Assembly (NCBI GenBank): GCA_963831485.1
Contig: CAWHQE010000001.1
Coordinates: forward strand, 85,288-149,287
Length of the DNA: 64,000 nucleotides
Reading direction: 5' to 3'
From: an uncultured Alphaproteobacteria bacterium
GTDB lineage: Bacteria; Pseudomonadota; Alphaproteobacteria; Sphingomonadales; Sphingomonadaceae
Position 1 is the stretch's first letter. Every line of letters begins with the position of its first letter. Both the position numbers and the translations under genes were made by a program. Shown in pieces: positions 13,967 through 63,519 of this stretch. The notes below the pieces were generated by a model. That model did not search any database. It was not told the DNA's origin and saw only the letters and a program-made list of their open reading frames with translations.

Positions 13967-16271
13967 CGGCGCTTTTCGACCACCTGCGCGAGCGCGGCGT
14001 AAAGCTTGCCCATATCCGACGACATCAATGTGACCGCGATCATCCCGCCGTCGCGTTCGGCGAGGACACGGCGCAGCATGGCTTCGAAATCATGGACGTA
14101 GCGGTTCACCGAGGACTGGAACTCAGGCTCGCTTTCGTAATGTGATTTGATCGACCGCGTTTCGCTGGCGTCCATCAGACGTACGGCGCGCCTGGTGAAG
14201 ACGCCGCGGTTGCCCTTCAGATAGGCGCCCCACGCTTTGTCGTCGATTTCGTCGGACAGGATCTTGCCAACGTCGATCGACGCGGAATGCATCGAGTTCG
14301 ATCAGCAGCGAAACACGGCGGGCGAAAGCCTCGCTGTCCTTCTCGCGCTGCTCGTCGCGGGTCGCTTCGATATGCTGTTCGAGCGCCGACGCGCTCTGGC
14401 CGAGCGACAGCACCTGCTGAGTCAGACGGTCCGATGCGGCACGCGCCGATTCGACCGCGCGGGCCGCGACCGTTTCCACCTCCCGCAGTCGCTCTTCGAT
14501 CTCCTCACGGATCACGCGCTCCAAAGCTGAGCGAGTCTCGTCGGACAACTTCACGACGCTCGATGGGATGACTGCCTCAATCGCTTCGCGGGCGCGCTCG
14601 GCGGCGTGGGCGGCCGCGTCCTTCACATGGACCAGCGCGGTGACGAGCGCCGGCGCCGTTTCGGCGCTGAGACTGGCCGCTTCGCGTTCGACCTCCGAGA
14701 GCATCGACGAAAGTTCGGTGAGCTTGCTCTGCGCGTTGCCGACGCCCTCATCGACGGTGGCGAGGAGGGCGGTGAAGCGATTCTGTTGCTCGCCGATGGT
14801 CTCTTCTGTCTCCGACAGGCGCTGACCCGCCTCGACGGTCGCTTCGCGAATGCGCTCGATTTCGGGGCGCACCGAAGTCGCCGCTTCGGACAACCGGTCA
14901 GCGCCGCCCTGGGCCTCGCCGATGGCCGTCCCGAGGTTTTCGCGGATTTCGTTGGTCAGCCGGTCGATGCTCTCGCTGAGGGTCGCGGTCCGTTCCACAA
15001 TCGAGCCAATCGCCGATTCCTGCGAGATCGCCTGAGAAGCGAGCGTGTCGAGTTCGCTGCGCGCGCGGCTGAGCAATTCGATGAACTTGTTCGCACGCTG
15101 GTCGCCATTTGAAGCGAGCTCCGTGAACCTCTGGTCGATCGCTGCCAGGCCGCGATCGATTTCCGCGATCATCAGGTGCGAAGCGCGGTCCTGCTCAGCG
15201 ACTCGTGCCGACAGGTTTTCGAGCGAACTGCTCGCGTGAGCGACATTGGCGGCCAGCGATTCCGCGGCGTCCATTCCTGCTCGGCCAAGACCGGCAGACG
15301 CCTGTTCGACGAGCGCAGCGACCGCCGCGGACTGAACGTCGATTCCGCCGCGGATCTCCTCGAGCGTCGCTGAGGTCCGCTCAAGCAGCGTCTCAAGAGT
15401 GGAGGACATCCCCGCATGCGCTTCACCGAGCCGAGCCGTGGCGGTGGTTCCGGCAATATCGATTTCAGCAAGTCGAGTGGCGAGCCGGTCCGTCGCCTCG
15501 GCAATCAGCTGGTCCGCTTCGCGGGTCCGTTCGGTGAGGTGACCGACATAATTGCCGAACACCTCGGCCTTCTCGACGGATTCGCTACCGAGCGCGCGGA
15601 TTTGCTCAGCCAGCGCGCGCGTTGTCTCTTCGGCGCTCGGCAAATCCTCGAGTAGGACGGCGACATCATTTCGTGCCGATTTCGGCCGCGCGGTCAAGCG
15701 CTTCGCCGTGCCGCTTCAGCCTCTCGCTGCTGTTGTCGAACTGCTGGGTGATCCCGCCAAGCTTTCCGGTCGCATCATCGCCGAGCTGCATCAGATTCTG
15801 CGCCATCATCGTCAGCTCGGAGCGACTCTCGCTGATCCGCTGAGACAGGACTTCGAGCAAAGCCTCGAGCGACTGAGCTTCGCCACGCATAGCGATGACG
15901 GAGCGAGTGAAGCGCTCTGCCTCCTTACGGCGGGTGCGACCGAAGATCAGCCAGAGAAGTGCGAAAAGCGCGAGCGGCCCCGCCGCGATCGCCAGCCATT
16001 GGGCGACGATCGGCGAGGTAAGCGGTTGCCCGGAGAGGGTGCGTCCGGCAGACCAGGCCGAATAACCAAGCCACACCGCCGACAGAGCGATCAACGCGAT
16101 CGCAAGAACCTGCCGCCCACCTGCTCCGAGATCGGCGGACAATTCCTCAGTAGGCTGGAGCCACTGCTCTTCTTCCATCGAACCGTCGGGAAGGACGTCC
16201 GCGCTCGTCAATTCGAGGGGCTCGAGGGAATCGGTCAACGCATGCTCAGCACGCTTGGGGATCGGTGTCAT
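13963..16271 (-). CDS. About 768-aa membrane-anchored coiled-coil protein (TipN/GPR-like), split by two +1 indels near 15681 and 14296
   Basis: Three consecutive ORFs join into one frame after removing one base at each site (DRAAE-SARNDV; LLIE-SMHSASIDV). Two N-terminal TM helices, long helical repeats, C-terminal VNRYVHDFEAML...SSDMGKLY domain. Confidence 0.75.
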
Positions 16272-16354
16272 CGCAATACAGACATTACCACCTTTGAAGC
16301 CTCGCGAAAGCGGTTAGAGAAGGGCTTCGAGGCGGGGAGGGAACGGATAAGCGA

Positions 16355-17536
16355 ATGACGGTCGGCGCGCTGATCGGGGCCTATCAGGAAGATGACAGTG
16401 GCGGTCTTCGGGCACTGCTTCCGCTGGCTGGAAGGACCCTGCTCGAATATCAGGTCCGCTGCGCCGCCGCTGCAGGAACCGCGCCGGTCGTGATCGTCGT
16501 CGAGCGAGTACCTCAGGCGCTCCAGGATGCGTTCGAACGGCTTCGCCAGGATGGCGTTGCGGTCTTTGCGGCGAGCGACGTCAGCGAAGCCCTGAGCCGC
16601 TTCGAAGCAGGCTCGATGATCCTGCTTGTAGGTGACGGCATTGCGCCGCCGGCGGACTTAGTGGCCGCATTGGCGAACGAACCGGAACCAGCCGTCGCGA
16701 CCGTACCAGACGATGCCGCGCACCAATCGTTCGAACGCATCGACGCCGAATCGAGGTGGGCCGGGGTGGCGCTGGTCGATTCGCATTTGCTCGGCTCAAC
16801 GGCCGCCATGCTTGGAGATTGGGACCTTCAATCCACCCTTTTGCGGCGGACACTTCAGGAAGGAGCGCTTCGTCTCCCGGCGAACGACGTCGGCGGCGAA
16901 CCCCTCATCGCCGAGACAGGCGAAGACCTGTACGACTTCCAGCGCAAGCTCGTCGTCAGCTCGCGCGGCGCCCGTCCGGACTGGGTCAGCCGCTATCTTC
17001 TTCCACCAATCGAAGAGCTTGCGACCGAGCGGCTAATGGAGAGCGGAGTCAGGCCGCCGTGGCTGATGTGGGCAGCGCTCGGCCTTACGCTTGGCGGAGC
17101 GCTCTGCTTCACCCGCGGATGGCTCGGCGCCGGGCTCGGCTTGCTTATCGCATCAATGCCGCTCGATCTCATTGCCAACCGGCTTGCTGGCCTGCGCCTG
17201 AAACCTCTGCCGGTCCGAATGCTCAGCCGGCTGGCCCTGTGGCCCGCCGCGGGAATCGCCCTCCTCGCACTCGGCTGGTGGGAAATGGGCCATGTCAGCG
17301 GCTGGGGTGCACTCGTCGGCGCGATCGGGGCGGGCGCGTTCGCCGAAGCGGCGCGAATCGAGCGATCGTCGATGCAGGACAGCGAGCCTTGGTTGATCTC
17401 ACGCCGAAGCGCGATCGTTCTTGCCGTTCCCTTTGCTCTCGCGGGCGCCTGGACAAGCTATCTTGTGGTGCTTTCGGTTTACGCGCTGGTTTCCTTCTTC
17501 ATTGTCCAGCATGTGCGCCATCAGTCATCAAGTTGA
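16355..17536 (+). CDS. Nucleotidyltransferase-like N-terminal domain plus multi-TM C-terminal domain, function unknown
   Basis: RALLPLAGRTLLEYQV resembles sugar-nucleotidyltransferase N-termini; several hydrophobic segments in the C-terminal half. Confidence 0.6.
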   Translation: MTVGALIGAYQEDDSGGLRALLPLAGRTLLEYQVRCAAAAGTAPVVIVVERVPQALQDAFERLRQDGVAVFAASDVSEALSRFEAGSMILLVGDGIAPPADLVAALANEPEPAVATVPDDAAHQSFERIDAESRWAGVALVDSHLLGSTAAMLGDWDLQSTLLRRTLQEGALRLPANDVGGEPLIAETGEDLYDFQRKLVVSSRGARPDWVSRYLLPPIEELATERLMESGVRPPWLMWAALGLTLGGALCFTRGWLGAGLGLLIASMPLDLIANRLAGLRLKPLPVRMLSRLALWPAAGIALLALGWWEMGHVSGWGALVGAIGAGAFAEAARIERSSMQDSEPWLISRRSAIVLAVPFALAGAWTSYLVVLSVYALVSFFIVQHVRHQSSS

Positions 17537-17548
17537 CGCGAAGTTAAC
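17533..17548 (+). promoter_or_regulatory. Near-consensus CtrA box TTGA-N7-TTAAC
   Basis: TTGA cgcgaag TTAAC, one mismatch to TTAA-N7-TTAAC, 25 nt upstream of the DUF2336-like gene; the first half overlaps a stop codon. Confidence 0.45.
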
Positions 17549-17573
17549 GGAAATCGGATAACGCAGTCGCGTA

Positions 17574-18614
17574 ATGATGCCTGAAGAGTGGCCGATTATC
17601 GCTTCGGCAGAGCCGAATGCGCCCGCGCGCGTCGCGGGCCGTGGGCGCCTGTCCACGGTCCGGGCCGATTTTTTCCTCAATCCCGCCGAGCGCCTGACGG
17701 AACAGGAACGGGCGCTGATGACTGCCATGCTGCACTGCCTTGTGGGGGATATCAGCGGCGAGATCCGTGCTGCGCTGCCGGCCGGTTGGGCGGGCGCTAA
17801 TGACGATGAGGCAGCAACCGTCAATTCCTTGACCAGGGCGGGCCTGCTCGATGACGCTGAGCTGATGGCGCTACTCCTGCGCCGCGCCGACGAAGAGCGG
17901 ATTGGGAGCGCTGCCCGAGCACGGAGTGGTCGCCGCGAGGCGCGCGCTGTCCAGGGACTCGTCAGCTACCACGACTCGACGGTGTCTGCCGCGGCAATGG
18001 CGCTGATCCTTGCGCGCGGCAGGCGCCGCGACCGCTTCGGTCAATGCCTGATCGCTTTCGACGATCTCTCGACCGTGTCATCGCAGAGGCTAGTCCACGC
18101 CGTCGCTGCAGCTTCGCGCCGCGATGTCGCCTCCGGATATGGCGCCGCTGCGGCCGATGCCGAGCTTTCAGCCGCGGCTTCACGGCTCCTCGACAAGCAT
18201 GATCAGGGGCGTGGCGTCGAAGCGCTTACTGCTGCGCTTGTTGCGGTTCTCGACGAAGCCGGCGGACTATCTGACGAACTACTTCTCGCCTGCGCTCAGG
18301 AGGGCGAAGTTGGATTCCTCGCTCAGGTGCTCGCCCGAAGGGCCGGCATCAGGGGCACCGTTGCGATGGACGAGCTTCTCGCCGGCGAGCCGGGTCGCTT
18401 GATGGCGCTGCTTCGCCTCGCCGGCTTTTCGCGCGAGCTCTGCGCTGGCCTGCTGGCAAGCCTCGGCGACCTTTTGGGAATCGATGATCCGGGATCTGCG
18501 ATCGGGCATTTCGATGCCATGACCGCCGAGGAGATTGGCGCAACGGCCAGCTGGCTCTCGGCGACCGCTTACTACCGCGCTGCGCTCGAAGCGTTGGGAA
18601 GCCGCAATGGCTAG
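17574..18614 (+). CDS. DUF2336-like all-helical protein
   Basis: 346-aa Ala/Leu-rich helical ORF with DFFLNPAERLTEQERAL and LLLRRADEER segments, which I recall from the sphingomonad DUF2336 family. Confidence 0.55.
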   Translation: MMPEEWPIIASAEPNAPARVAGRGRLSTVRADFFLNPAERLTEQERALMTAMLHCLVGDISGEIRAALPAGWAGANDDEAATVNSLTRAGLLDDAELMALLLRRADEERIGSAARARSGRREARAVQGLVSYHDSTVSAAAMALILARGRRRDRFGQCLIAFDDLSTVSSQRLVHAVAAASRRDVASGYGAAAADAELSAAASRLLDKHDQGRGVEALTAALVAVLDEAGGLSDELLLACAQEGEVGFLAQVLARRAGIRGTVAMDELLAGEPGRLMALLRLAGFSRELCAGLLASLGDLLGIDDPGSAIGHFDAMTAEEIGATASWLSATAYYRAALEALGSRNG

Positions 18615-19935
18615 TGCTCCATCCGAACCCCGCGCGGTCGCCGGACGGCTCGACAGCTTCGGGCGGCTCATCGCGGCCGACCCCGAGCTTGAATCGCTCC
18701 AGCGGGAAGCTGGTTCGGAAGTCGGCCAGATGCTTGCTTTGCCGCAGGTCGCCGCAGTGGCCCAGCTGGCTCGTAAGCTTGGCACTTCTGTCGGGCGCCC
18801 AGCTGTCGCTGCCTCGGCTGACAACGACATCGAAATTTGGGTCAATGCAACGCCTGAAGGCGACGAGATCGTCTTGTCGCTTGAGGGCTGGACGGTACGT
18901 CCTGCGGCCGGTCCCCGTCTTGCAACGATCCTCGGCGGCGGCAGTGAAGCCGCCAGCGCAGCCGCGCAGAACGAATGGGCGACCGACGAGGAGCTGCGGA
19001 TCATCTCCATCTCATCGGAATTTGCTGAGGTGCTCGGAATCGATGTCGCAGAGGCTGCCGGTGCACCGCTCACGCGCATCGTCCGCCTCGAAGAGGATGC
19101 AAGCGGCGAAATGCCGCTGATCAACGCGCTGGCGGGCAGGCGCAACTTTTCGGGCCAACGCGGACGCAGCCGATCGAACGAAGCCAGCATCGTGCTCAGC
19201 GGCGAAGTCGTGACGGCGGCCGATGGCTCCTTTGCCGGCTTCCGCGGGACAGCCGCAAGCGAGACGGACGCTAGCGCGCAGGCAATCACCCGTTCGCCGG
19301 GCTTCGACCAGGCGTTGGACGAATTGCTGCGCTCCCCGATCGATCGGATCATCGAGAGCGCTGAAAAGATCGTCGCCCGCTCGGACGGGCCGCTGCGCGG
19401 CGATTATGCAAATTACGGCAATGACATCGCGTCTGCTGCCCGGCATCTGCTCTCCGTACTCCGCGCGATGAGCGAAGACCCCACCCAGGTTCACGGCCTC
19501 GTCGATCTTGCGGCGCTCGCGTCCGAAGCCGTCATCATGCTCGAATCCTCGGCTGAAGATCGCGGCGTGCATATCCAGATCGATCGTTCCGAACCGCTTC
19601 GTGCTCGCGGACAGGAACGCGCGGTCATCCAGATCCTCGTGAACCTGATCGTGAACGCGATCCGCTATTCGCCCGAAGGCGCCACGGTCCGGATCAGCTT
19701 CGACAGGGTCGCGGGGGCAGCGTCGGTTATCGTTGGCGACGAAGGTCCGGGTATCGCCGCTGGTGACGAGCAGCGCATTTTCGAGCGTTTCGAGCGAGCC
19801 CAGGCCAAGGAAGCCGGCACCGGCCTCGGCCTCGCGATCTCGCGGCGGCTCGCCCGTTCGATGGGTGGCGATGTGACGCTCGACAGCGCGCCGGGCGAAG
19901 GCGCGCGCTTCACGCTCACTCTTCCGGCTGCCTAG
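18607..19935 (+). CDS. Sensor histidine kinase-like protein lacking the phospho-accepting His
   Basis: Intact N, G1, F and G2 boxes ([30 protein letters not shown]); H box reads DELLRSPI. Confidence 0.88.
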
Positions 19936-21221
19936 CCTCTCTTGTCGACCGGCACGTAGTCGCGCTGAGTAGCGCCGACATAGAGCTGGCGCGGGCGGCC
20001 TATCTTCTGATCCGGATCGGCGATCATCTCGTTCCACTGCGCGACCCACCCGACGGTGCGCGCAACAGCGAAGAGCGCGGTGAACATGTCTGTCGGGAAG
20101 CCGATCGCGTTCAGGATGACGCCCGAATAGAAATCGACATTCGGATAAAGCTTCTTATCGATGAAATAGTCGTCGTTGAGCGCGATGTGCTCGAGCTCTT
20201 TGGCCACATCGAGCACCGGGTCGGAAATGTTAAGCTCCTTGAGGACCTCGTCCGCGGTCGCCTTCATCACCTTCGCCCGCGGGTCGAAATTCTTGTAGAC
20301 GCGGTGTCCGAACCCCATCAGCCGGAACGGATCGTTCTTGTCCTTCGCCCGAGCGATATATTCGGGGATGCGTTTGGTCGTGCCGATCTCTCGCAGCATG
20401 TTGAGTGCCGCCTCGTTCGCTCCACCATGCGCGGGACCCCACAGGCAGGCGATGCCCGCTGCAATGCACGCGAATGGGTTCGCGCCCGACGATCCGGCCA
20501 GGCGGACCGTCGACGTCGACGCGTTCTGCTCATGGTCGGCATGGAGGATGAAGATCCGCCGCATCGCATTCTCGATGATGGGGTTCACCACATATGGCTC
20601 CGCCGGCACGCCGAAGGTCATCCTCAGGAAGTTGCCGGTGTAGCTGAGGTCGTTCTGCGGATAGAGGAACGGTTGCCCGATCGAATATTTGAAGGCCATC
20701 GCCGCGATCGTCGGCATCTTCGCAATCAGCCGGTGTGAAGCGATCATCCGCTGCTCGGGATCGGTGATGTCGGTGCTGTCGTGGTAGAATGACGAGAGCG
20801 CGCCGACGACTCCGCACATGACCGCCATCGGGTGCGCGTCACGCCGGAACCCGCGATAGAAGGTCGCGAGCTGCTCGTGCACCATCGTGTGGCGGCTGAT
20901 CGTGTAGACCCACTCGTCCAGCTCCTTGCCGGTCGGAAGCTCGCCGTGGACCAGTAGATAGGCGACCTCCATGAAGCTCGAATTCTCAGCGAGCTGGTCG
21001 ATGGGATAGCCGCGATGGAGCAGGATTCCCTTTTCGCCGTCGATGTAAGTGATCTTGCTTTCGCAGCTCGCCGTCGAGGTGAAGCCCGGATCGTAGGTGA
21101 ACATTCCGGTCTGGCCGTAGAGCTTGCGGATATCCACGACCTCGGGACCAACCGTCCCGTCAAGGAGCGGGTAGTCGAAATCGCCTCCCGGCGTTTTCAT
21201 CGAGACGGCTTTGTCGGTCAT
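19932..21221 (-). CDS. gltA: Citrate synthase (type II)
   Basis: [31 protein letters not shown] and YPNVDFYSG motifs. Confidence 0.98.
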
Positions 21222-22615: not shown

Positions 22616-22718
22616 GCTTGCGCTAAGGCGCGCTTTCCTCTTCTTTGTATGCTGCAATGCAATGAACGAGCGCCCCTAACATAGGGGAAGCGCCTCTTCC
22701 ACAGCGCGCTCGGAGCTA

Positions 22719-23048
22719 TTGGAAGGCGCGGATTTTCGCGGCTCCGGGGGGTTGGAAAAGCTCCTCAAGGCGGAGCATGCCCAGCTTCCGCCATGGGTGG
22801 CATCGGCGGGATTGCTGCCTGGTTCGGGCTCGATGAGCCGGCGCTGGGGAAGGCGTTCCTCTGCCTTGCCGGCAGGCCGGCGTCGGTTGCCGAACTTCTT
22901 GCAAATTCCCCTCGCAGACGGTTCCGATCTTCTTGCTTTTCGCGCTCATGGAATGGTCGAGGAACATGCGTGTGAAGCTCTTCGGGGTCGTCGCCAGCCT
23001 CATCCTCGTGAACAGCTCGATGATCGACCGAGGTCTCGAGGTCGCTAA
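22719..23048 (+). pseudogene. comEC: Degenerate N-terminal remnant of a ComEC/Rec2 competence protein gene
   Basis: Fragments LEKLLKAEHAQLPPW and GIAAWFGLDEPALGKAFLCLA in different frames resemble the ComEC N-terminus; from recall, comEC lies between gltX and lexA in related genomes. Confidence 0.55.
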
Positions 23049-23064
23049 GGCGGGCTAAGCGAGT

Positions 23065-23715: not shown

Positions 23716-23742
23716 TCGTATGTCCCCGTCATCCCCTGTGTG

Positions 23743-23785
23743 GAACGAACGGAGAACGTGTAGGCAACAAACGCGCTCAGGTCAA
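23743..23785 (-). promoter_or_regulatory. lexA promoter with alphaproteobacterial SOS box
   Basis: GAAC-gaacgga-GAAC at 23743-23757 abuts a minus-strand TTGACC-N17-TACACG promoter. Confidence 0.85.
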
Positions 23786-23795
23786 GCCGTGCGAA

Positions 23796-26578: not shown

Positions 26579-26644
26579 GCGGCCATTCAGTTCACAATCA
26601 GGCGCGTTGTGATTATGCAAATCCCATCAAAAGATAAGGAAGGG

Positions 26645-36648: not shown

Positions 36649-36921
36649 TATTCTTCCCCGAACCGCTCCTCGACGAGCGCCACCAACTTGTCCAGCGCCT
36701 CTTCGGCATTCTCGCCATCGACGTGGATGATGATCGCGTCGCCCATTGCCGCACCGAGCATCATCAGCCCCATGATGGAGGTTCCGCACACCTTGTTCGA
36801 AATCCTTCTCGACCTCGATCGGAATCCCGATCTCGCTCGCTAGATTGACGAACTTGGCGCTCGCCCGTGCGTGAAGCCCGCGTTGGTTGGTGATCCGAAC
36901 CTCGCGGCTGACCACCGTCAA
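36648..36921 (-). CDS. ptsH: Phosphocarrier protein HPr, with a +1 indel near 36801
   Basis: GLHARASAKFV; removing one base gives EKDSNKVCGTSIMGLMMLGA and a 90-aa protein. Confidence 0.9.
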
Positions 36922-37325: not shown

Positions 37326-38250
37326 CGATTCAACTCGTCCTCGCCCTCGCTTGCCGAAGCGCGCCCGGGATGCCGTTCGATCGTGTCCCTCGGAGGTGAG
37401 GCGAGATCACGGTGACGTACATTCGGAGCAAATCCGGCACCGCCAACCGTTCCGCCATTTCGACTGCTGCTGCCACCGAGCGGTGGCGCCCCCCTGTACA
37501 TCCGAATGCAACGGTCACGTAACTTTTGCCCGCGGCCCAGTAGCGGGGAATCCAGTCGATGAGAAGCGATTCGATGCGGTCGATTGTCTCACTCCAGGCC
37601 GGTTCGGCTTCGAGATAGGCGCGAACCTCCAAATCGGCGCCCGTCAGCGGCCGAAGCTCGTCGACCCAATGGGGGTTTGGAAGGAAGCGCAGGTCGAAGA
37701 CCAGGTCGGCGGTTCGCGAAATGCCACGGGCGAAACCGAAGGATGCGATCGTCAACACCGGCTGGTCGGAGTCGCCGCCGTAACGCCGCTGAAGCTCATC
37801 GCGGAGTTCGGCGGGGCTGAGGTCGGTGGTGTCGAGGACGCTGTCGGCCCCGTTCCTCAGCGCCAGCGTCAATTGCCGCTCGCGAGCGATTCCGTCCTCT
37901 GCGGGCCGGTCCGGAGCAAGCGGATGTCTGCGGCGGGTCTCGTCGTAGCGCCGCATGAGCTCGGTTCCGGAGCAATCGAGATAGAGGATTTCGGGTTCGA
38001 CGCCCTCGATCGAGCGGATAAGGTCGGGGAGGCGTTGCGGGTCGAACCCGCGGCTCCGAGCGTCCATCGCGACCGCGACGGAAGCCGTTCGACATTGGTC
38101 GCCGCCGTTAACGAAGGCACTGAGAAGGTCCGTCGGAAGATTGTCCACGACGTCCCAGCCCATGTCCTCGAGGGTGTCTAGGACTGTCGATTTGCCCGCG
38201 CCCGACATCCCCGTGACGAGGAGAAGGCGCGGCTGGTGGCGTTTCGCCAT
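37322..38250 (-). CDS. rapZ: RNase adapter RapZ, with a probable -1 indel near 37440
   Basis: TGMSGAGKS, VDNLP, DLRFLPNPHW and GCTGGRHRSV motifs; the corrected tail stops over the EIIA ATG. Confidence 0.9.
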
Positions 38251-38706
38251 CAGAACTTCAGGCCCAAGCGGTCGAGGGCGATCGCGATTTTCGACGGCGC
38301 AGAAGCGGTCGTTGCGTCAATTGAGATCAAAGGAAGCGCTACTCCGAGGATCGTCCGCTCGCGGCTGTCGTCCGGCATGCGCTCGATGTCGCTCGTCAGC
38401 TCGACGACCATTGCGACGGGCACGTCGCTGATGTGGTCGATTTCGACGATGCCAATGCCGCGCACTTCGAGCTTGCCGGCGATGTTGGGCGCAGCTGCGG
38501 CGATCAGGCGGTCTCCCTCGCGCTTGACGACAGTCTGGTCGTCGCTGACGAGGCGTGAACCCGCGATCGAGCAAACGCAGCGCGAGGTCCGACTTGCCCG
38601 ATCCGGAAGCGCCGGTGATGAGGACAGCGCGACGGCCGAGGGCGACGGTGCTCGCATGGATGGATTCTGCCGACAGCCGGGGCGCCGCTCCCCCGATCTG
38701 GCTCAT
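38250..38706 (-). CDS. hprK: HPr kinase/phosphorylase, with a +1 indel near 38552
   Basis: IHASTV and GASGSGKSDLALRL in one frame; LVSDD and LEVRGIGI in the next. Confidence 0.88.
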
Positions 38707-44689: not shown

Positions 44690-46532
44690 GCGGACCTGGT
44701 TCGAGCGATGTAATCGTCGACGTTCCTGGCAAGCACGTCCATCGGAACATTGCCGCCCAGCACGACCGCGTCATCGAATGCCTTCAGGCTGTAATTCGAC
44801 CCGAGCTCACGCTTTGCTTTGTCGCGGAGCTGATTGATCGTCATATGCCCGATCTTGTAGCCGCAGGCCTGGCCTGGCCATGCACAATATCTGTCGACCT
44901 CGTTCGCCACTTCGAGCGGATTGGAGCCGTTGACGTTGACGAAATAGTCGACCGCCTGTCGGCGCGTCCATTTCATCGCGTGGATGCCGGTGTCGACGAC
45001 CAGGCGCACGGCGCGGAATGAAATCGACTGGAGGTAGCCGAGCCTCGCCGCCGGGTTGCCGTCATAGGCGCCGAGCTCGTCGCCTAGTTGCTCCGCGTAC
45101 AGCGCCCAACCTTCCGAGTAGGCGTTGAACGCCAGCAGCTGCCGAATCAGCGGCTCCTTGTGCGTATATTCGCCTTGCCAGATGTGGCCAGGAATCGAAC
45201 TCGTGGAAGGTGAGATCCGCAAGGCTGTACTTGCGGTGCAGGTCGGTATTGCGAAGGTTGATCCAGAACCGCCCAGGTATCTTGCCGTCGATCGAACCGG
45301 CGCCGCCGTAAGCGGTCGGAGCGCCGGGCTCTTCTTCTGGCGACATCCGCTTCACCTCCACGTTCGGATGGACGAGTGTGTTGAAGGCGCGAGGGAGCTG
45401 CGCGTCGATCCACTTTAAGCGGTCCTGGATGAAGGCCATGATCTCGGCGCGCCCCTGGTCGCCATCCGAGAATTGATACTTCGGGTCTTTGGCGAGCGCT
45501 TTCATGCGATCGCCGACGCTGCCGGTCGTGTAGCCGATCTGCTTGAGGATCGAATCCATCTGCCGGTGCAGCTTTTGAAGCTGGTTCAGGCCCATCTGAT
45601 GGATCTGTTCAGGCGATAGCCTCGTCGTGGTGCCGGCCTTCAGCGCCCAACGATAATAAGCGTCGCCGTTCGGCCGGGCCCACATGCCAGCATCATCGGT
45701 CGACTTCTCACGCTCGGCCTGTAGCTCGGCGATCTGTCGCTGGATGGCAGGCGTCACCTGCTTCTCCAGGATGTCGCGCGCGGGCGTTTCCCAATCGCCC
45801 GAGATGCCCTTCGCCTTGGTCTTCTTGAGCAGCGTATCGACCATGGCTCCGCCGGACGCGGCGTCCTTGGCGGCCATTGTCAGCGCGGGAATGGTCTTGT
45901 CGATCAGGAAGCTCGGAGGAACGAGGCCTTTGCCGCGGGCTGTCTGGAGCCGCCCAAGCTCTCCGTCGAGAACCTTCGAAAGCTCTGACAAGCGCGAAAG
46001 ATAGGCGTCTGCGTCGGCCTTGGTTTCGAGCGGCTGGTCGTTGTTCAGCAACTGCGGAATGTCGAGCCACGCGCCGACATTCTGGATCACCACGTAAGGC
46101 GCGTTGCGCCAGCCGCCGACGGCCACGTCGCCATAGGGTTGGCCAAAACCTTCGACCGCGGTCTCGTACGCGCTTCGGACCACCTCGAAATTGGTGCGCA
46201 TCTGGAAGTTGAGACTGCTCGCATCGAACGCTTTCGCCCGGTCGAGGTCATCTCGAAGGACGCTCGCAATCCGATTTCTGGCCTGCGGCCGATCGATCCT
46301 CGAGCATTCCACGCAGCGCCGCTCGCGCACCGCTATCGACGCCAAGGCCCGTCGCGGCTTCCGGATAGAGGTTGAGGAAATGGTCGGCGAAGCTGTTGAG
46401 CAGCGGGAGTGGGTCTCCCGACGCTTCTCTGCCGGCTCCTATTTCCTTCTTGCAGGCCGAAAGCAGCGGCATGGCGGCGGTAGATGCGAGGGCGGCGACC
46501 GCTTGGCGACGAGTGAAGTCCGGCAATGGCAA
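44686..46532 (-). CDS. DUF885 family Tat lipoprotein, with two +1 indels near 46276 and 45198
   Basis: TRRQ...LSAC signal; corrected HESIPGH and EGWALYAE motifs, YCAWPGQACGYKIG; about 614 aa when joined. Confidence 0.85.
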
Positions 46533-46671
46533 TTCCTTGGGTCAGATGCAGCAGCTTGGCCCTTGACGAGGGCCGCTCCATTCCTTGTGAAGGAAGCGAC
46601 GCACGGAACGCAATTCCGACGAAGCGGCGGTCCGGTTCGCTGCGCGGTTGCGCCTGCCGAGGGGAGGGAAC

Positions 46672-50797: not shown

Positions 50798-52271
<1,474 letters not shown>

Positions 52272-52274
52272 CCG

Positions 52275-53449
52275 ATGACCCCCGCCGCTCGCCTGCAGGC
52301 GGTCATTGAAGTGCTGGACGAGGTCATTGTGTCGGCGCGCGAAGACGGCCCGCCGGCGGATGCGATTGTTACCCGCTATTTCAGGCATCGCCGCTATGCC
52401 GGTTCGAAGGACCGGCGAGCGGTGCGCGAACTCGTGTTCCGAGCCATCAGACGCTCGGCGGAGCGACCTGAGAGTGGTCGATCCGCAGTGTTGGGTTTGA
52501 CGAAAGACGAACCCGCCCTATCGGACCTCTTCGGTCAGCCGCGGGGACCGGATCCGCTGGAAGAAAATGAGGCCGCCGCCGAGGCGAGCCTGATTCCCGC
52601 TTGGCTCAGTCCCGAGCTCTCGCCACGCGTTTCGCGAGACGAGTGGCGGCAACTGTTGGAACGCGCACCGCTCGACCTCAGAGTGAATGGAGCGAGGGCA
52701 TCGCGCGACGACCTCCTCGGTGCGTTCCCGGGAGGGGCGCCGACACCGATCAGCCCATTCGGCATTCGCCTTCCTTCCGACAGTCGCATCGATGACCATC
52801 CGGCCTTCGAGGGCGGCCTTGTCGAGGTGCAAGATGAGGGCAGCCAGTTGATCGCGATCGCTTGCGAACCTGCGGCCGGCGAGCGGATCATCGACCTTTG
52901 CGCCGGCGCCGGTGGCAAGTCGCTGGCGCTTGCAGGCCTTGCTCCTGATGCGACAATCCTCGCCACCGATAGCAACCGCCTACGGCTTTCGAAGCTCGCT
53001 CCGCGTGCCAAGCGCGCCGGCGCAGCTGTCGATACCCAATTGCTGAGCCAGCCCAATGAGCTGTTAGAGCTCGAAGATTGGCGCGGTAACAGCCATCTCG
53101 TCCTCGTCGATGCACCATGTTCCGGAAGCGGTACTTGGCGCCGCAATCCAGAGGGGCGGTGGCGCCTGACACCCGAGGACTCGACCGTCTGACCCAGGCT
53201 CAGGAGCGGCTGCTCGATATCGCCGCCGAACTCGTCCGGCCTGGAGGACGGCTTGTCTACGCGGTCTGCTCCCTGCTGTCCCGTGAAGGGGCAGTGCAGA
53301 TCGAGCGCTTCTTCCAGCGCCATTCATCGTGGATTAGTGAGGAAACGCCCATTCGTACGGGGCGTGCGGATGGAGCAGGGCGACTGTTGACGCCAGGCCA
53401 CGACCGTACCGACGGCTTTTTCGTCGCGCGGCTTCGCCGTCCATGCTAG
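52275..53449 (+). CDS. RsmB/NOP family RNA m5C methyltransferase, with a -1 indel near 53177
   Basis: VQDEGSQL, DLCAGAGGKSL and LVDAPCSGSGTWRRNP; YAVCSLL continues in the next frame. Confidence 0.9.
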
Positions 53450-53472
53450 GCGGCGAGCGAGAATTGGAGAGA

Positions 53473-53973: not shown

Positions 53974-53977
53974 TGCG

Positions 53978-55791: not shown

Positions 55792-55819
55792 GGAAGCCGC
55801 CCTTATCGGAAATGATCGA

Positions 55820-57196
55820 TTAGCGGAATTCGATCACCGCGTCGCGGCGAAGATCGGCAAGATACCGCCGCGCGCGGGTGTTCACCCGCTCTTCGTTGAG
55901 CTGGCTGTAAATGTCGTCGTAGGTCGGAGCCGACGAATCCGCCTGGTCACGGCCGCAGATCACGAGCGTGCGAACGCCTTCCTCGATCGTTCCGAACGGC
56001 GGGGTCGCCTGACCGACCTGCATCGGGACCATCATCTGCTGAAGAGCCGTTGGGAGATCGCGCATCTTGACCTGGTCGCTCGACACGACCTCGCCGTGGA
56101 ATTCAGCAGCAATCTTGTCAGTGCCGCCACAGCCGCCAATGCTCTTCGCCGCGTTGGCAAACTTCTCCAGCGTCGGCTCTGCTTGATCACGCGTCGTGCC
56201 CTTGGGGAAGGTGATCGAAACCTGCTTGAGGCTGAGGATCGCATCGCGCGGATCCGCCGTCAGGATCTTGCGCGTATCCTGCACCGCAATGATGGAAACG
56301 CCGCCCGGCACAGGGATCGGATTGCTGATCGTCCCCGGCGTCATATTACGGAGCGCCGCAGCGAGTGGGGCGGGCAGCTGCTCCGGGCGGACCCAGCCGA
56401 GGTCGCCGCCTACCGCCGCTGTCGATGCTTCCGAATATTGACGAGCGTATCCGGCGAATGAGGCGCCGTTTTTCAGCTGATCCAGGATTTTGCTCGCATT
56501 CTGGAGCGTCTGGTCCTGCGTGTAGGGCGTTGCGGACAGGAAAATCTCGCCGACGCGATACTCCTCTGTGCCCTTCGATGCGTTGAGGCGATCGAGAACG
56601 GCCTTCACTTCATCGTCGCCGACGCTGACGCCGCTTTCGATCTTGTCGTGCTGCAGGCGGGTCCAGGCGATCTCACCTTGGATCTGCCGCCGCATTGAAG
56701 CGATCGAGGATCCGTGGAGGAGCAGATAGTCCTTCAGCTGATCCGGGGTCTGCTTCACGCCCGCGGCGACACGGGCGACAGTGCGGTCGATCTCAGCAGG
56801 CTTGATCTCGATCTTGTCGTCCTTTGCCGCCTGGATCTGAAGCGTTTCGTCGATCAGGTTGCGAAGGACCTGCTGACGGAGCGCGTCCACCTGGTCAGCG
56901 GGGATTTCGTTGCCGTTCGCAATGGCAAGCAGCGCAAGGCGCTCGTCGACGTCTGTCTGCGTGATGACGTCGCCGTTGACCAGTGCCGTCGCCTTGATGA
57001 CCGAGGGCATGGCAGTGCCGAAAACTTCCGGATTCTCGGGAAGGTGAAGTGACTGGGTGCTGTTGATTGGCGGGGAGTTCTGCTGATCGTCAGCCTGCTG
57101 GGCGGTGGCCCCGCTTGCAGCGCCGAGCAGGATGGCGCCGCTCGCAATCATGGTGCGCGTGGAATTCAGTCGGAAAGCTCGTGCCACGATTTTCAA
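55820..57196 (-). CDS. surA: SurA periplasmic chaperone / PPIase
   Basis: Between lptD and pdxA; NGDVITQTD and GGDLGWV motifs; the start could be 57151. Confidence 0.88.
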   Translation of the reverse strand: MKIVARAFRLNSTRTMIASGAILLGAASGATAQQADDQQNSPPINSTQSLHLPENPEVFGTAMPSVIKATALVNGDVITQTDVDERLALLAIANGNEIPADQVDALRQQVLRNLIDETLQIQAAKDDKIEIKPAEIDRTVARVAAGVKQTPDQLKDYLLLHGSSIASMRRQIQGEIAWTRLQHDKIESGVSVGDDEVKAVLDRLNASKGTEEYRVGEIFLSATPYTQDQTLQNASKILDQLKNGASFAGYARQYSEASTAAVGGDLGWVRPEQLPAPLAAALRNMTPGTISNPIPVPGGVSIIAVQDTRKILTADPRDAILSLKQVSITFPKGTTRDQAEPTLEKFANAAKSIGGCGGTDKIAAEFHGEVVSSDQVKMRDLPTALQQMMVPMQVGQATPPFGTIEEGVRTLVICGRDQADSSAPTYDDIYSQLNEERVNTRARRYLADLRRDAVIEFR

Positions 57197-57259
57197 AATT
57201 CCCTTGATTTGCAGCCTGCTGCGGTCATCGCCGTTTATTCAAGCCCGCTGAACGCAGCC

Positions 57260-59482
57260 TTAGCGGCCAATGCCCTTCAATGCCAAGTGAACTCCGATGC
57301 TGTTGCCAGCGCGGAAGGTGCCGATGCGCTCATAGTCGCGCTTCCACGTAAGTCCAATCTGCAAGCAATCGTCTTCGTACTGGATCCCGAGACGGTCGCG
57401 GACCGGCTCCCAGCCGTCGGCGGTCGACAGTGGATCCTCACTCGCATCAGTAAGATCGACGACCGCCGCCCCGAAGATCGACCAATAGCGGGTTAGGAGG
57501 ATTCGGCCTGCTACGCGAAGTTCCTCCACGTCTCTGAGGTCTTCGATGCTTGGGTCGACGTCGCGGTTCAACTTGAGATAGCCGATCTGCGCATAGGTCT
57601 GGGTCGTGCCGATGGTCAGATCGATCTCGTTGCGCCGAACCGCGAAATTGTCCTTGTCGATGCGGTATCTATGCGTGAGCTCGAGGAGCCGTCCGTAGCG
57701 AATGCTGGTTCTTCCCACGATGTCAGAGAGTCGATCGGTCAGGCCCGTTCCCTCGGGGAAGATGTCCGCGCGGTCTACCAGTCGGTAGCTCTGACCAATC
57801 GTGCTTTCGATCGAGAGGTTTGGCCGGTCGAGCGACCAATCGAACCCGTAGGTGATGCGGGAAGCATCTTCCCAGCGATCGTAGCCTGCGAAGCGGTTGA
57901 GCGCGAAAAGGTTGCCGTCCTCGAGATCGATGGACCTCGCGTCCTCGTTGGGGATGTCGAGGTTTTCAGTATGCGGCGTCAGCACCAGCTGCACCCGCGG
58001 AACCAGGCGTTGCACGCCGCCGAATAACGGGCCAATGAACGGCCATTGGACATCGGCCGCGAGTGCCCCGATGGCCCTCGTGTGCCAGCCGTCCGTGCCG
58101 CTGTAGATCGCGACCGTGGTGCTTTCCGCGTCGTCGGTATGATAGACGTCGCCCCGCCCGTAGGCGGTCAGCGTGATCTGCTGACCCCATGGAGTGATCC
58201 GCCTGAGATCCCATTCCGCGGCCGCGAAGGCCCGCTGCGTGTCCTGGCCCTCGATCCTCAATATCGACAGGCTGTTACCTTGCAATTGAAGCGTGCCGCC
58301 GAGCACATCCTCCATTCGGAACCGCGCGTCGATCGCCGGAAGGGCGATCGGGATCTGCTTCTGGCGGTCTTCTTCCTGGAGACCCTCGAACGCCCAACCG
58401 GCGATGGTGATGTAAGAATCCGTGTCGATCCGCTCGACATTGATGACGTTGCGCAGGCGGTCGTCGTTCGTGATGTCATACCGCCGCGTCATCGTCTTGT
58501 CCGAAGCGACTCGGAGCGACGTGGTGATGCTCCAGTAGGGATCGAGCTGGGCCTTGCCGTTGGCTTCGAAATAAGCGCGGAAGCCCTTCTTCGTGGACGT
58601 GACGTCGGGATCGATGCTCTCGATCGTTCCGTAGGTGAGGAACCCACCGATCTGAAACGCTCCCCATTTGTCGAGTTGCCGGTACTTCGCCTCGATTGCC
58701 GGCAAGACGCCTGTGTAGATATGTGGAGTCAGCGTGAAGTCGCGGTTGGGCCCGATCTGCCAGTGATAGGGCTCCGCGATTTCGAACCCCTTCTTGCTCG
58801 AAATGCTGAAGTCCGGAGCGAGCCAGCCAGTTGCGCCCTCGTTTCCCGTGCTCACTTTGAAGATTGGAAGCAGGGGCAGGGTGATTCCGAACAGCTGGAA
58901 CCGGCCGCCGATGAACCGCACCTGCTCGTGGTCCGGATCGTCGATGACCTTCGCCGCCGTGATCGCCCAGCTCGGCCGCTTTGGACAGCCTGTCGACGTC
59001 GTGACGGGGCAGGGCGAATAAATCGCATTGTCCAGCGTGGTGAGGTTGCCCGTGCGGGTCCCGCGCGCGGCTGCGATCCTCGCCCCGTTCTCCATGACGA
59101 CCATCAGGTCGTTGACGGTTCCGTCCTTCAGCGTGTCGGTGAGCTGCACGGTATCGCCGACGAGCTTATCGCCTTGCGGGGTAAGCAGCACGACATTGCC
59201 CTGCGCGTAGACCTGGCCGGTCTTGCGGTTCCAGATCACCTTGTCCGCGGCGAGATAGTTCCCCTCGCGGTCCATGCGCACCGCGCCCGCGGCGGTCACT
59301 ACATCGGCGTCGCTGTCATAAGTGACGGATTCGGCACTGAACTCGACGATTTGATCCTGAGAATTCGTAGGGGAGGCCGGAGTAGTGGACGCCGGTGCCC
59401 GCGGCGCGGCCTGCGCTGACGCCGCTGCCGGTATCGTCATCAGCATCGGAAGCGCTGACCACCAGACAAATCTCGCCGCCAA
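57260..59482 (-). CDS. lptD: LPS assembly protein LptD
   Basis: OstA-like N-terminus, CPVTT...PSWAITA, beta-barrel C-terminus with YEDDC; heads the surA-pdxA-rsmA operon. Confidence 0.92.
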   Translation of the reverse strand: MAARFVWWSALPMLMTIPAAASAQAAPRAPASTTPASPTNSQDQIVEFSAESVTYDSDADVVTAAGAVRMDREGNYLAADKVIWNRKTGQVYAQGNVVLLTPQGDKLVGDTVQLTDTLKDGTVNDLMVVMENGARIAAARGTRTGNLTTLDNAIYSPCPVTTSTGCPKRPSWAITAAKVIDDPDHEQVRFIGGRFQLFGITLPLLPIFKVSTGNEGATGWLAPDFSISSKKGFEIAEPYHWQIGPNRDFTLTPHIYTGVLPAIEAKYRQLDKWGAFQIGGFLTYGTIESIDPDVTSTKKGFRAYFEANGKAQLDPYWSITTSLRVASDKTMTRRYDITNDDRLRNVINVERIDTDSYITIAGWAFEGLQEEDRQKQIPIALPAIDARFRMEDVLGGTLQLQGNSLSILRIEGQDTQRAFAAAEWDLRRITPWGQQITLTAYGRGDVYHTDDAESTTVAIYSGTDGWHTRAIGALAADVQWPFIGPLFGGVQRLVPRVQLVLTPHTENLDIPNEDARSIDLEDGNLFALNRFAGYDRWEDASRITYGFDWSLDRPNLSIESTIGQSYRLVDRADIFPEGTGLTDRLSDIVGRTSIRYGRLLELTHRYRIDKDNFAVRRNEIDLTIGTTQTYAQIGYLKLNRDVDPSIEDLRDVEELRVAGRILLTRYWSIFGAAVVDLTDASEDPLSTADGWEPVRDRLGIQYEDDCLQIGLTWKRDYERIGTFRAGNSIGVHLALKGIGR

Positions 59483-59647
59483 CGCTGTCTCGCCCGCCCA
59501 CTCGTAATGATGTGCCTTGGCAAGCGCCTATCGCACCTCTCCTTCGGGACGACAATCGCCCAGAGCAGCCTGTCGCCGCTCCTTTGCCAAGGTTGGACTT
59601 GCATCCTAAAGGCAGCGCGAACGTTCGCCTTCAGGGAATAGGGACAA

Positions 59648-61117
59648 ATGGAAATTCGCTTCGCCGATAGCCGGCCTACGGGAGAATTCGCTCTAGTTCT
59701 GCCGATTGCGGGCAAGGACCGGAAGAGCCTGGGGTCGCTCGGAACAGCGCAGCAGGCGGTCGGCGCCGCGCTGGACCGCCAACGCTTCGAAGGTGAGGCA
59801 TCGGCAGTATCGGAGCAGTTCGTCGAGGAAGGCGGCACGTCGCGGCGTGTCCTAATTGTTGGCGTCGGCGTCGGAACGAGCCCCGACAAAGCGGCCGAGC
59901 AGCTCGGCGGCACCGCCGCTGCCAGGCTATTGACCTCCGGTGAGAAGCGGGCCGTCATCGACCTCAGCGGACTCGGCTACGACGTCGACGCCGCAGCCCG
60001 TGCCGGCCTTGCGGCAGCGCTCCGCTCGTGGCGGCACGACCGTTATCGCACGAAGCTCAAGGACAATCAGAAGCCGACGCTTGAAGAAGTCGTCGTGGTT
60101 GGTGGCGCTGACGGTGCGCAGCAGCGCTACGACAGCCGCTGGGCGGCCGTGGCTCAAGGCGTATCGCTCACCCGTGAGCTCGTCACCGAGCCGGCGAACA
60201 TCATGTATCCGGAGAGCTTTGTCGAACGCGTCCGCGCATCGCTCGAAGGGTCGGGGGTCGAGATCGAGGTCCTCAACAGAGCGCAGATGGAGAAGCTCGG
60301 AATGGGCGCGCTGCTCGGCGTGGCTCAGGGTTCGGCGCGGGAAGCTCGTCTGCTCATTCTGAAATGGAACGGCGGCAGTGCGGGCGAACCAACCGCGTTC
60401 GTCGGCAAGGGCGTCACGTTCGACACGGGCGGCATCTCGATCAAGCCGGCCGCCGGCATGGAAGCGATGAAGTGGGACATGGGTGGAGCCGGCGCGGTTG
60501 CCGGCGTGTTCAAGGCGATTTCGCTCCGCAAGGCAAAGGCGAACGTCGTCGGGATCTGCGGCCTCGTCGAGAACATGCCGGGAGGCAATGCCCAGCGTCC
60601 GGGCGACGTCGTTACAACGCTGTCCGGGCAGACGGTCGAGGTGATTAACACCGACGCGGAGGGCAGGCTCGTGCTCGCCGACGCGGTCGCCTATGTGCAG
60701 CACAACTACAAGCCGAAGACCGTTATTGACCTAGCGACACTCACCGGCGCGATCCTCATCAGCCTCGGCCATGAATGGGCCGGACTATTTTCGAACAATG
60801 AGGAGCTGGCGAGGGAGTTGCTGAAGGCGGCCGACGAATCGGGTGACAAGCTATGGCGCATGCCGCTCGCGGAGCCATTCGACCGCCTGATCAATTCGCC
60901 GATTGCCGACATGAAGAACGTCGGTCCACGCGAGGGCGGGTCGATTACCGCCGCGCAGTTCATCCAGCGTTTCATCGAGAACGGAACGCGCTGGGCGCAC
61001 ATCGACATGGCCGGTAAGGCTTGGTCCGACAAGGCGAGCTCGACCTATGACAAGGGTGCGACGGGCTATGGCGTCCGTTTGCTCGACCAATATGTCGAGG
61101 ACGTGCTGGAAGCCTGA
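59648..61117 (+). CDS. pepA: Leucyl aminopeptidase (M17)
   Basis: VGKGVTFDTGGISIK, MKWDMGG and NTDAEGRL motifs. Confidence 0.96.
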   Translation: MEIRFADSRPTGEFALVLPIAGKDRKSLGSLGTAQQAVGAALDRQRFEGEASAVSEQFVEEGGTSRRVLIVGVGVGTSPDKAAEQLGGTAAARLLTSGEKRAVIDLSGLGYDVDAAARAGLAAALRSWRHDRYRTKLKDNQKPTLEEVVVVGGADGAQQRYDSRWAAVAQGVSLTRELVTEPANIMYPESFVERVRASLEGSGVEIEVLNRAQMEKLGMGALLGVAQGSAREARLLILKWNGGSAGEPTAFVGKGVTFDTGGISIKPAAGMEAMKWDMGGAGAVAGVFKAISLRKAKANVVGICGLVENMPGGNAQRPGDVVTTLSGQTVEVINTDAEGRLVLADAVAYVQHNYKPKTVIDLATLTGAILISLGHEWAGLFSNNEELARELLKAADESGDKLWRMPLAEPFDRLINSPIADMKNVGPREGGSITAAQFIQRFIENGTRWAHIDMAGKAWSDKASSTYDKGATGYGVRLLDQYVEDVLEA

Positions 61118-61129
61118 ACTGGAGCGGCC

Positions 61130-61567
61130 GTGCAGGTCGATTTCTACCAACTCGCCGGCACGGCTCCTGAAGGGGTCATCGCCAGTCTGGCGGAGAAGGT
61201 GCTCGCCGCCGACGGACGACTCTTGATCGTTGCAGAGGATGAGAATTATCTAGCCCGACTAGAAAGGATGCTGTGGGATCAGGGAGCCGTCACCTTCCTT
61301 CCCCACGCGGTGGCCGGCGGCGCCGAAGATGCGCGCCAGCCCATTCTCCTTTCGACCAGCCCCGATGCACCAAACCTCGCTCGCAACATGCTGATAGCAG
61401 ACGGGGTCTGGAGGGATGCCGCGCTGTCCTATGACCGCAGCTTCTTCCTCTTCGACAATGCGACGCTGGAGGATGCGCGGCTCGCGTGGAAGTTGCTGGC
61501 GGGTAGGGAAGGGCTCGAGCGACGCTACTGGGCGCTGGAAAGCGGCAAATGGGCCAGAAAGGCGTGA
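61130..61567 (+). CDS. holC: DNA polymerase III chi subunit
   Basis: VDFYQL and [12 protein letters not shown] motifs; follows pepA. Confidence 0.88.
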
Positions 61568-61643
61568 GGCTTGCCGCGCGGCGACTGCACCGCTAGGCGG
61601 CCCAGCAAATCCCAACCAACCCAATACAGGAGACCGCCCGGTC

Positions 61644-62066
61644 ATGGCCGTGACGCGCACCTTTTCGATCATCAAGCCCGATGCGACCCGCCGAAACCTC
61701 ACGGGCGCAGTGACCAAGATGCTGGAGGAAGCCGGCCTTCGAGTCGTTGCTTCCAAGCGCATTCACATGACCCGCGACCAGGCCGAAGGCTTTTACGCCG
61801 TCCACAAGGAGCGGCCATTCTACAACGACCTCTGCACCTTCATGACGTCAGGTCCGGTCGTGGTTCAGATCCTCGAGGGTGAGGATGCGGTGAAGCGCAA
61901 CCGCGATGTCATGGGCGCAACCAATCCCGCCGACGCCGCGGAAGGAACGATCCGCAAGAGCTACGCAGAATCGATCGAGGCGAATTCAGTCCACGGTTCC
62001 GACAGCGACGAGAACTCGAAGATCGAGATCGACTTCTTCTTCAAGCCCGAAGAGATCGTCGGCTAA
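61644..62066 (+). CDS. ndk: Nucleoside diphosphate kinase
   Basis: TFSIIKPDA and NSVHGSDS motifs; ATG 61644. Confidence 0.97.
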
Positions 62067-62076
62067 CGCCCTCACG

Positions 62077-62097
62077 CGATGCTCGATCAGAGCATCG
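62077..62097. terminator. Hairpin between convergent ndk and cls
   Basis: CGATGCTC-gatca-GAGCATCG 8-bp stem; no U tract. Confidence 0.4.
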
Positions 62098-63519
62098 GGC
62101 TGAAGTCGCTAGAAGATTCTGCCAGAGCCGCAAGATGATGCTGTAACTGGCCACATCCGCGGCCGTCACGCGATCGCACTGGGAGAGATATTCGTCCTGT
62201 CGGTCGCGGACGGCCATGGCGAAAGCCGGATCCTCGAACAGAATATTGTTCTCGAAATTGAGCTCGAAGCTGCGGCGGTCGAGGTTCGCGCTTCCGATTA
62301 GTCCGACGGCGCAGTCGACAACCATCGTCTTGGCGTGGAGGAGGCCCGGGCGGAATTCGTAGATCTCGGCGCCCGCGTCGATCAGGTCCTTGTAATAGCT
62401 GCGGCTCGACGCGGCGACGATCCGGCTGTCGTTCCGCTTCGGGAAGAGGATCACCGTTCGGACGCAGCGTCGTGCCGCTGACGTGAGGGCGAACAGCAAC
62501 TGCTCATCGGGAATGAAATAGGGCGTCGTCACCACCAGCTCGTCTCGCGCCGAGTGGATGAGCTCGGAGAAGCAGGCCGGCATCGCGTCGAATTCGGCCG
62601 TCGGCCCGGTGCCGAGCACCTGAGCGACGACGGCACCTTGACCTTCAGGCGTCGGTGCGGTCAGCAAGTCGCCGATCTCGTCGCCGCCTTCTGCGATCCA
62701 GTCCGAGACGAACAGATACTGGCACTGCTGTGCCACGGCACCTTCCCACCGGCTCATGATGTCGACCCACGGGGCGTATTTGGCCTTGATCCGGAACTCG
62801 GGGTCGGCGGCGTTCTGGCTGCCGCACCAGGCGATTCGATTGTCGACGATCATCGATTTGCGGTGATTGCGGAGGTCGACGCGGCCGCGGATCGCAGTCC
62901 ACAGCGGGTTGCCGACGGGGAGGGCGACCCTAACCTCGCATCCGGCGTCGCGCATCTCGCGCCAGTGATCCGACCTGATGAGGCGGCGCGAGCCAAGCGC
63001 GTCCGCCAGGAGCCGCACGTGAACGCGGCGCCCTGCGGCCCTGATGAAGGCATCCTTCAGCTTCAGCCCGTTGTTGTCGGCGAGCCAAATGTAGAAGCAC
63101 CCGTGGACGGTCTCCCGCGCCGTATCGATGTCCGCGATCATCTCATCGATGGCGGCGTTGCTGTCGTGCGCGAGGCGGGCGCTGTTGTTGCAGGTTGGGT
63201 CGAGGTGATTGACCGTGCGGGCGAGGGCGAAGGCGGCCCAATGGGCCCCCCCCACTTTTTCATGAGGACAGTCGTAGTTTCCCGCCGGACGCGGGAGCCG
63301 AGCGTTGATCTCGCGTCCTCGTCTTCTTCGTCCTGAACTGATGCGTGCCTCGCCGAGCAGCAGGTACAGAAAGACACCGACGACCGGCAGCAACAGCACG
63401 GCTATGATCCAAGCGAGGCGCGCGGCCGGTTCACGGTGAGGTCGCAACAAGGCGCGGATGATCGTCGCGGCATCCGCGAGGAAGATCGCCGCAGAGCTGA
63501 TGAACTCCCAGTTGAACAT
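62087..63519 (-). CDS. cls: Cardiolipin synthase, with a probable -1 indel near 62104
   Basis: Two HKD motifs (HRKSMIVD, HAKTMVVD), two N-terminal TM helices; the corrected end reads LLAT(L/F)SPML*. Confidence 0.92.

Follow-up and report, generated by a model that had tools for sequence, protein, structure and literature searches.

Assembly errors at probable methylation motifs

In the Alphaproteobacteria GANTC is methylated by CcrM, at the adenine of either strand, and this methylation is near-universal in the class. Methylation-motif errors in Oxford Nanopore assemblies, at GATC (Dam), CCWGG (Dcm) and GANTC (CcrM), form a known class, which the case described here most closely resembles: ten single-base insertions and deletions (indels) that interrupt genes within a 64-kb stretch of DNA, hereafter the window, from an uncultured alphaproteobacterial lineage. 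In nanopore assemblies of agrobacteria, error motifs are found at GANTC and are fewer when methylation-aware models are used (PMC12710330), and in Brucella nanopore assemblies GANTC-linked errors have been reported together with ccrM (PMC12392509). The ten frameshifts of the window are very probably errors of a long-read consensus, most of them linked to GANTC through methylation by CcrM, rather than mutations.

The window is positions 85288-149287 of contig C1 within a 3.23-Mb genome assembly (labelled G000) of 20 contigs, with 63% guanine plus cytosine and an estimated completeness of ~91%. The closest genomes available for comparison are metagenome-assembled genomes of the same genus, at ~72-80% nucleotide identity. 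The gene set, with a ChvG-type kinase, an HprK-like gene, RapZ, PtsH and CcrM, is one that we take to be alphaproteobacterial.

Ten single-base indels in the window

Uninterrupted orthologs were drawn from the same-genus relatives G003, G014, G009 and G007, and their proteins were aligned to the window DNA by a frameshift-aware protein-to-DNA dynamic programme in which one-base skips are allowed, an approach that places an indel to within 1-2 codons. The collinearity of G003 with the window does not hold past ~46 kb, and orthologs beyond that point were found by DNA searches. The affected genes align end to end with uninterrupted orthologs at 67-91% identity, with no other damage, and the frameshifts in the aligned genes are exactly ten single-base indels, seven of which are extra bases (+1) and three missing bases (-1) (Table 1). 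One-base gaps at ptsH and rapZ are independently visible in the DNA alignment with G003. No further frameshift was found at three suspicious overlaps, and fmt, citrate synthase and a tetratricopeptide repeat protein are complete by Pfam, although a gene-by-gene check of the window was not made.

Six of the seven insertions (14296, 15680, 36801, 45199, 46274 and 51677) lie in the hexamer GAANTC/GANTTC, and the removal of one A/T from each leaves both GANTC and the residues of the orthologs. At each of these six sites the inserted base either copies, or cannot be told from, the A:T pair that occupies the methylation position of GANTC, the outcome expected if the signal were distorted at N6-methyladenine. 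At 14296 the repair gives GAC TCG, the Asp-Ser found in the orthologs (G003 and G014), and GACTC/GAGTC remains. At 15680 the orthologs keep both the Glu and the Ser on either side, which assigns the surplus base to the AAA run, as one of its A residues, and the repaired site is GAATC. These two insertions fall in the same gene, which encodes a conserved protein of 767 amino acids and spans window positions 13968-16271 on the minus strand. A second gene, of 633 amino acids (44691-46535; presumably DUF885-like), also carries two insertions, of which that at 46274 is located only to a 7-nucleotide stretch overlapping its GATTTC hexamer. The sixth insertion lies in guaB, which is ~90% identical to its orthologs.

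Two of the three deletions (53178 and 62103) also touch GANTC. The deletion at 53178 removes the first base of an Arg codon, directly upstream of a GACTC that is itself intact, and both orthologs have Arg. At 62103, in cls, the ortholog has Leu, and putting back CTC would recreate GACTC/GAGTC, a repair that is less certain because the site is only 4 codons from the C-terminus.

The window contains 149 GAANTC/GANTTC hexamers which, with a margin of ±2 nucleotides, cover 2.3% of its length, and the probability that at least six of seven +1 events would fall on them by chance is ~1e-9. The first-pass annotation, made from the sequence of the window, had put the chance of a random indel touching the motif at ~2%, which is a fair figure. 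All ten of the indels that it had described in otherwise intact genes are confirmed by the ortholog-guided alignment, as is its exclusion of rapZ and hprK from the pattern, no motif being present at 37440 or 38553. Its proposed repairs hold for the six insertions, for 53178 as a neighbour of GACTC and, with the reservation given above, for cls as GAGTC; the exception lies in the detail of 14294, where it had expected GATTC and the repair gives GAGTC (GACTC on the gene strand).

It might be supposed that the indels are genuine, either as pseudogenes present in the population or as the outcome of frequent mutation at the sites of CcrM. The fidelity of replication could conceivably be affected by methylated adenines; nothing more direct favours such a reading, and it is barely credible in view of the genes concerned. 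Core or essential genes are hit, guaB, ptsH and rapZ all lying in the 64-kb window and dnaA and rpoC outside it, and it is because essential genes such as guaB, ptsH, dnaA and rpoC appear 'broken' that error, rather than decay, is the better account. The high identity and lack of other damage in the remainder of each gene also stand against it, as does the assembly itself, which has error-dense duplicated ends and an estimated completeness of only 91%.

Enrichment across the genome

Frame switches were called throughout the genome with a 3-periodic fifth-order Markov coding model trained on long open reading frames, a candidate event being a same-strand frame switch with both frames open. This ab initio scan recovers the window sites. 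The candidate set is impure, being heavily contaminated by genuine boundaries between genes and by calls in the wrong frame, so that the raw motif share of 15% is not the true share. A clean set was formed from 25-kb bins with few events, together 2.6 Mb, with intervals shifted within the same genes serving as controls.

In these clean bins GAANTC/GANTTC lies within 20 nucleotides of 39 of the 174 +1 candidates (22.4%), against 6.7% in the shifted controls (p = 2e-11). The counts peak sharply at the switch point, with 36 in the central 20-nucleotide (±10) bin against ~7 per flanking bin. When the 6-mers at +1 switches are ranked without bias, GAATTC, GAACTC/GAGTTC and the same sequences shifted by one base come first, and GAANTC has the highest +1 fraction among the stop-free XAANTY hexamers, the affected cores being GAACTC/GAGTTC, GAATTC and GAAATC/GATTTC. 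A blunter, per-position classification also puts GAACTC/GAGTTC first, yet is dominated by hexamers that contain stops and starts. A site-centred count puts the excess at ~70 +1 sites for the 3,931 coding GAANTC hexamers. The -1 candidates of the clean bins have no excess of GAANTC/GANTTC, and genome-wide the -1 events are weakly linked to GANTC (12.9% against 6.9%, p = 0.02).

A simpler account would be that these are generic length errors in short homopolymers (AA to AAA, TT to TTT, A to AA), independent of methylation, which meet GANTC by way of common Glu/Asp/Phe/Ile codon pairs. Each of the six window insertions does lengthen an A or T run, and non-GANTC frameshifts are likewise found in short runs, in a C run in hprK and a GGG/CC context in rpoC. 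What contradicts generic homopolymer error is that the control hexamers, each one or two letters away from GAANTC/GANTTC, stay level: neither GAANTG/CANTTC nor CAANTC/GANTTG, in which the same run is kept and an outer base changed, nor GAANCC/GGNTTC, is enriched at the clean-bin +1 candidates. The motif itself, on the other hand, is enriched more than threefold, with a sharp positional peak, and a methylation-independent homopolymer origin is therefore very unlikely.

The GANTC-type share of the +1 errors in clean regions is ~20-40%, which remains a rough estimate because the test for a Pfam domain across the junction had low power, confirming 2 of 10 non-motif events as real frameshifts. Over the whole genome GANTC accounts for a sizeable part of the frameshifts but for less than half, and the window, where it is linked to eight of the ten indels, is richer in such errors than the genome overall. 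With regard to the abundance of the motifs, GANTC occurs 7,612 times in the genome, ~0.70 of the expectation from base composition, and GAANTC/GANTTC occurs 7,758 times, ~1.9 times expectation, an excess that probably stems from codon-pair usage.

Two narrower definitions of the motif were rejected. The bases flanking affected sites match background, which speaks against a required flanking base (CGANTC), and methylation of an EcoRI-like GAATTC is at odds with the ortholog-verified sites, which repair to GANTC and involve GAACTC and GAAATC equally.

A second, weaker context, CGAGA/TCTCG, is also enriched at the clean-bin +1 switches, where the central bin holds 29 occurrences and the flanking bins ~12. 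No longer consensus is evident around it, and it may reflect either a further kind of systematic error or the motif of a further modification.

A CcrM ortholog on the same contig

An intact CcrM ortholog of 378 amino acids is encoded on the same contig outside the window, on the minus strand (Table 1). Its residues 28-372 align with residues 15-360 of the protein in PDB entry 6PBD (524 bits, E = 1.8e-156), an alignment that includes the C-terminal DNA-binding domain, and the DPPY catalytic motif is present as FADPPYN. The top NCBIfam match is the CcrM model NF050803, at 619 bits, the next-best family scoring 135 bits. From orthology we infer that the protein is probably specific for GANTC.

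The first-pass annotation had proposed modification-induced miscalls of long reads, and had named frameshifts at GANTC across the genome and a ccrM gene elsewhere among the means of judging the proposal. Both the motif-specific enrichment and the full-length ortholog were found, and together they support it. From the assembled sequence we infer that GANTC is probably methylated in this organism, that methylation would be the cause of the errors, and that the reads probably came from a nanopore or similar long-read platform.

A methyltransferase other than CcrM could in principle produce motif-linked errors, as could a k-mer bias of the basecaller on unmodified GANTC. Such readings might draw on the dependence of the errors on context, GAACTC being enriched and GAAGTC not, and on CGAGA/TCTCG, the weaker enrichment of which hints at further systematic contexts. 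A search of the genome with PF01555 finds a single methyltransferase, the CcrM ortholog (other Pfam methyltransferase families lying outside that search), and methylation of GANTC by CcrM is near-universal in the class. The published tie between GANTC errors and methylation-unaware models (PMC12710330) likewise counts against these readings, and a different methyltransferase or a basecaller bias is very unlikely.

Proposed origin of the errors

The preferred explanation, that of consensus errors caused by CcrM methylation, would work as follows. The intact CcrM would methylate GANTC at the adenine of each strand, and the modified base would distort the sequencing signal, whether this is the current through a nanopore or the kinetics of a polymerase. 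In the consensus, a small fraction of GANTC sites would then come to hold the methylated A:T pair twice, GANTC becoming GAANTC/GANTTC; less often, a neighbouring base would be dropped instead. Errors of this systematic kind would be unaffected by higher coverage, and may thus make up a large share of the indels that remain in well-covered regions; in poorly covered contig ends they would be swamped by random indels. By our own reasoning, the pausing of the polymerase at N6-methyladenine in single-molecule real-time sequencing could also duplicate the methylated base.

Several observations weigh against this explanation. Two of the ten window indels (rapZ 37440 and hprK 38553) are unrelated to GANTC, and frameshifts outside GANTC are confirmed in rpoC and in an E1 dehydrogenase by Pfam domains that extend across the junction. 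Only ~1% of the 7,612 genomic GANTC sites are affected, and ~4% of those in the window. GAAGTC/GACTTC is barely enriched and GAACTC is enriched, in other words the two orientations of GACTC/GAGTC behave differently; therefore, sequence context matters beyond methylation. The 619 bits of the CcrM ortholog are under the NF050803 cut-off of 830, such that the protein falls short of the equivalog level of a model that looks, judging by its name, to be tuned to Caulobacter. Lastly, GANTC-linked errors in the literature are mostly single-base substitutions at a handful of sites, and those described here are duplications of an A:T pair.

Other frameshifts and assembly noise

The density of errors is very uneven across the assembly. 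Several segments, mostly paired between contigs, are duplicated (Table 1); the duplicated contig ends share 79-87% nucleotide identity with 16-32 gaps per kb, and within each pair frameshifts abound in one of the two copies. It is because of this identity and gap density that the sequence is regarded as poorly polished long-read sequence, and the pattern of 20 contigs, 91% completeness and gappy duplicated ends is compatible with noisy long reads. The duplicated ends suggest either unmerged contig ends of low coverage or a second, related strain that was binned with the genome or chimerically joined to it.

The noisy duplicated regions contain up to 16 frameshifts per 1.5 kb, and GAANTC/GANTTC is found at only 3.7% of their +1 events. 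A paralog-anchored alignment, mostly of these ends, contains a sparse class in which the hexamer is at 11 of 58 +1 events. Extra-base errors exceed missing-base errors by ~2.2 to 1, with 437 against 195 in the noisy duplicated regions and 7 against 3 in the window.

A transposase of IS630 type is also split by a +1 frame change, its helix-turn-helix part lying ahead of a DDE_3 domain; the split could be due to programmed frameshifting or to one more error of assembly.

Table 1. Coordinates of the features discussed. Window positions are given unless a contig (C1, C2 and so on) is named. Contexts are those of the gene strand, with an extra base in square brackets and a codon remnant with one base missing in angle brackets.
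Feature	Position	Strand	Event	Motif	Context	Remark
Conserved 767-aa (amino acid) protein gene	14294..14299	-	+1 at 14296	GAGTTC, gene strand GAACTC	ATC GAA[C]TCG	
Same 767-aa protein gene	15678..15683	-	+1 at 15680	GATTTC, gene strand GAAATC	GCC GAA[A]TCG	
ptsH (HPr)	36799..36804	-	+1 at 36801	GAAATC, gene strand GATTTC	GAT[T]TCG	
rapZ	37439..37441	-	-1 at 37440	GANTC not nearby	TTG GCG <GT> GCC	
hprK-like gene	38551..38555	-	+1 at 38553	not GANTC	ACG[C]CTC	CC/short-run context
633-aa gene	45197..45202	-	+1 at 45199	GAACTC, gene strand GAGTTC	GAG[T]TCG	repaired site GAGTC
Same 633-aa gene	46273..46278	-	+1 at 46274	GATTTC, gene strand GAAATC	CAG AAA[T]CGG	
guaB (IMP dehydrogenase)	51674..51679	+	+1 at 51677	GATTTC	GAT[T]TCA	repaired site GATTC
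391-aa RsmB/Sun-type methyltransferase gene	53176..53182	+	-1 at 53178		GAG <GA> CTC	
cls (cardiolipin synthase)	62100..62107	-	-1 at 62103		ACT <TC> AGC	
CcrM ortholog	C1:495643-496779	-				intact
dnaA	C1 ~29351	+	frameshift	GAGTTC, GANTC-type		recognised by eye
rpoC (domain 3)	C2 ~2263	+	frameshift	not GANTC	GGG/CC run	Pfam domain across junction
Dehydrogenase E1 component	C19 ~403990	+	frameshift			Pfam domain across junction
IS630-type transposase	C19 ~59392	-	+1 frame change			
Duplicated segment pair	C1:807081-833620 with C19:66882-95968					
Duplicated segment pair	C10:287814-379852 with C11:15082-104798					
Duplicated segment pair	C5:171505-190012 with C20:27540-46229					
Duplicated segment pair	C10:18284-28492 with C17:38182-48325					
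Duplicated segments within one contig	C7 against itself					
Duplicated segments within one contig	C14 against itself					97.8% identity

Implications

The genes at the ten indel-bearing loci (guaB, ptsH, rapZ, the hprK-like gene, cls and the other genes listed) are most likely intact and should be treated as such, and other genes of this genome that look like pseudogenes, such as dnaA and rpoC outside the window, are to be put down to assembly error. Necessarily, re-basecalling with methylation-aware models followed by polishing, or polishing with short reads, is needed before any claims are made about gene content or pseudogenes. A frame-restoring correction of GAANTC to GANTC could rescue dozens of genes in assemblies of this kind.

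The value of the finding is practical, lying in the annotation of this genome, and not conceptual: the pattern is real, but it is an artefact that is already known, and offers little conceptual novelty. As evidence for methylation of GANTC through CcrM in an uncultured alphaproteobacterial lineage it is indirect and unsurprising. The indel footprint in this genome does recover GANTC, and it is conceivable, if on balance doubtful, that the footprints left in long-read assemblies before polishing could serve, without raw signal, to reveal the active methylation motifs of uncultured bacteria, in which case CGAGA/TCTCG might mark another modification in the genus.

Comparison with known systems

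The genome's CcrM resembles that of Caulobacter (6PBD) in that it aligns over its whole length, with the C-terminal domain included and DPPY present; it differs in being known from sequence and in scoring below the Caulobacter-tuned NCBIfam cut-off. With the homopolymer indel errors of long reads the frameshifts share the form of single-base length errors in one-base runs, which lead to frameshifts, and differ from them in that the true runs here are of 1-2 bases and the effect is restricted to G...C flanks in the register of GANTC. From the published nanopore cases they differ in that ~1% of sites are involved, in an assembly of metagenome type and on a platform presumed to be long-read. The likeness to those cases is nevertheless close: a short palindromic motif, which a resident methyltransferase would modify, is hit repeatedly, the errors would survive both coverage and polishing, most of them interrupt genes by falling within coding sequence, and CcrM is encoded in the genome.

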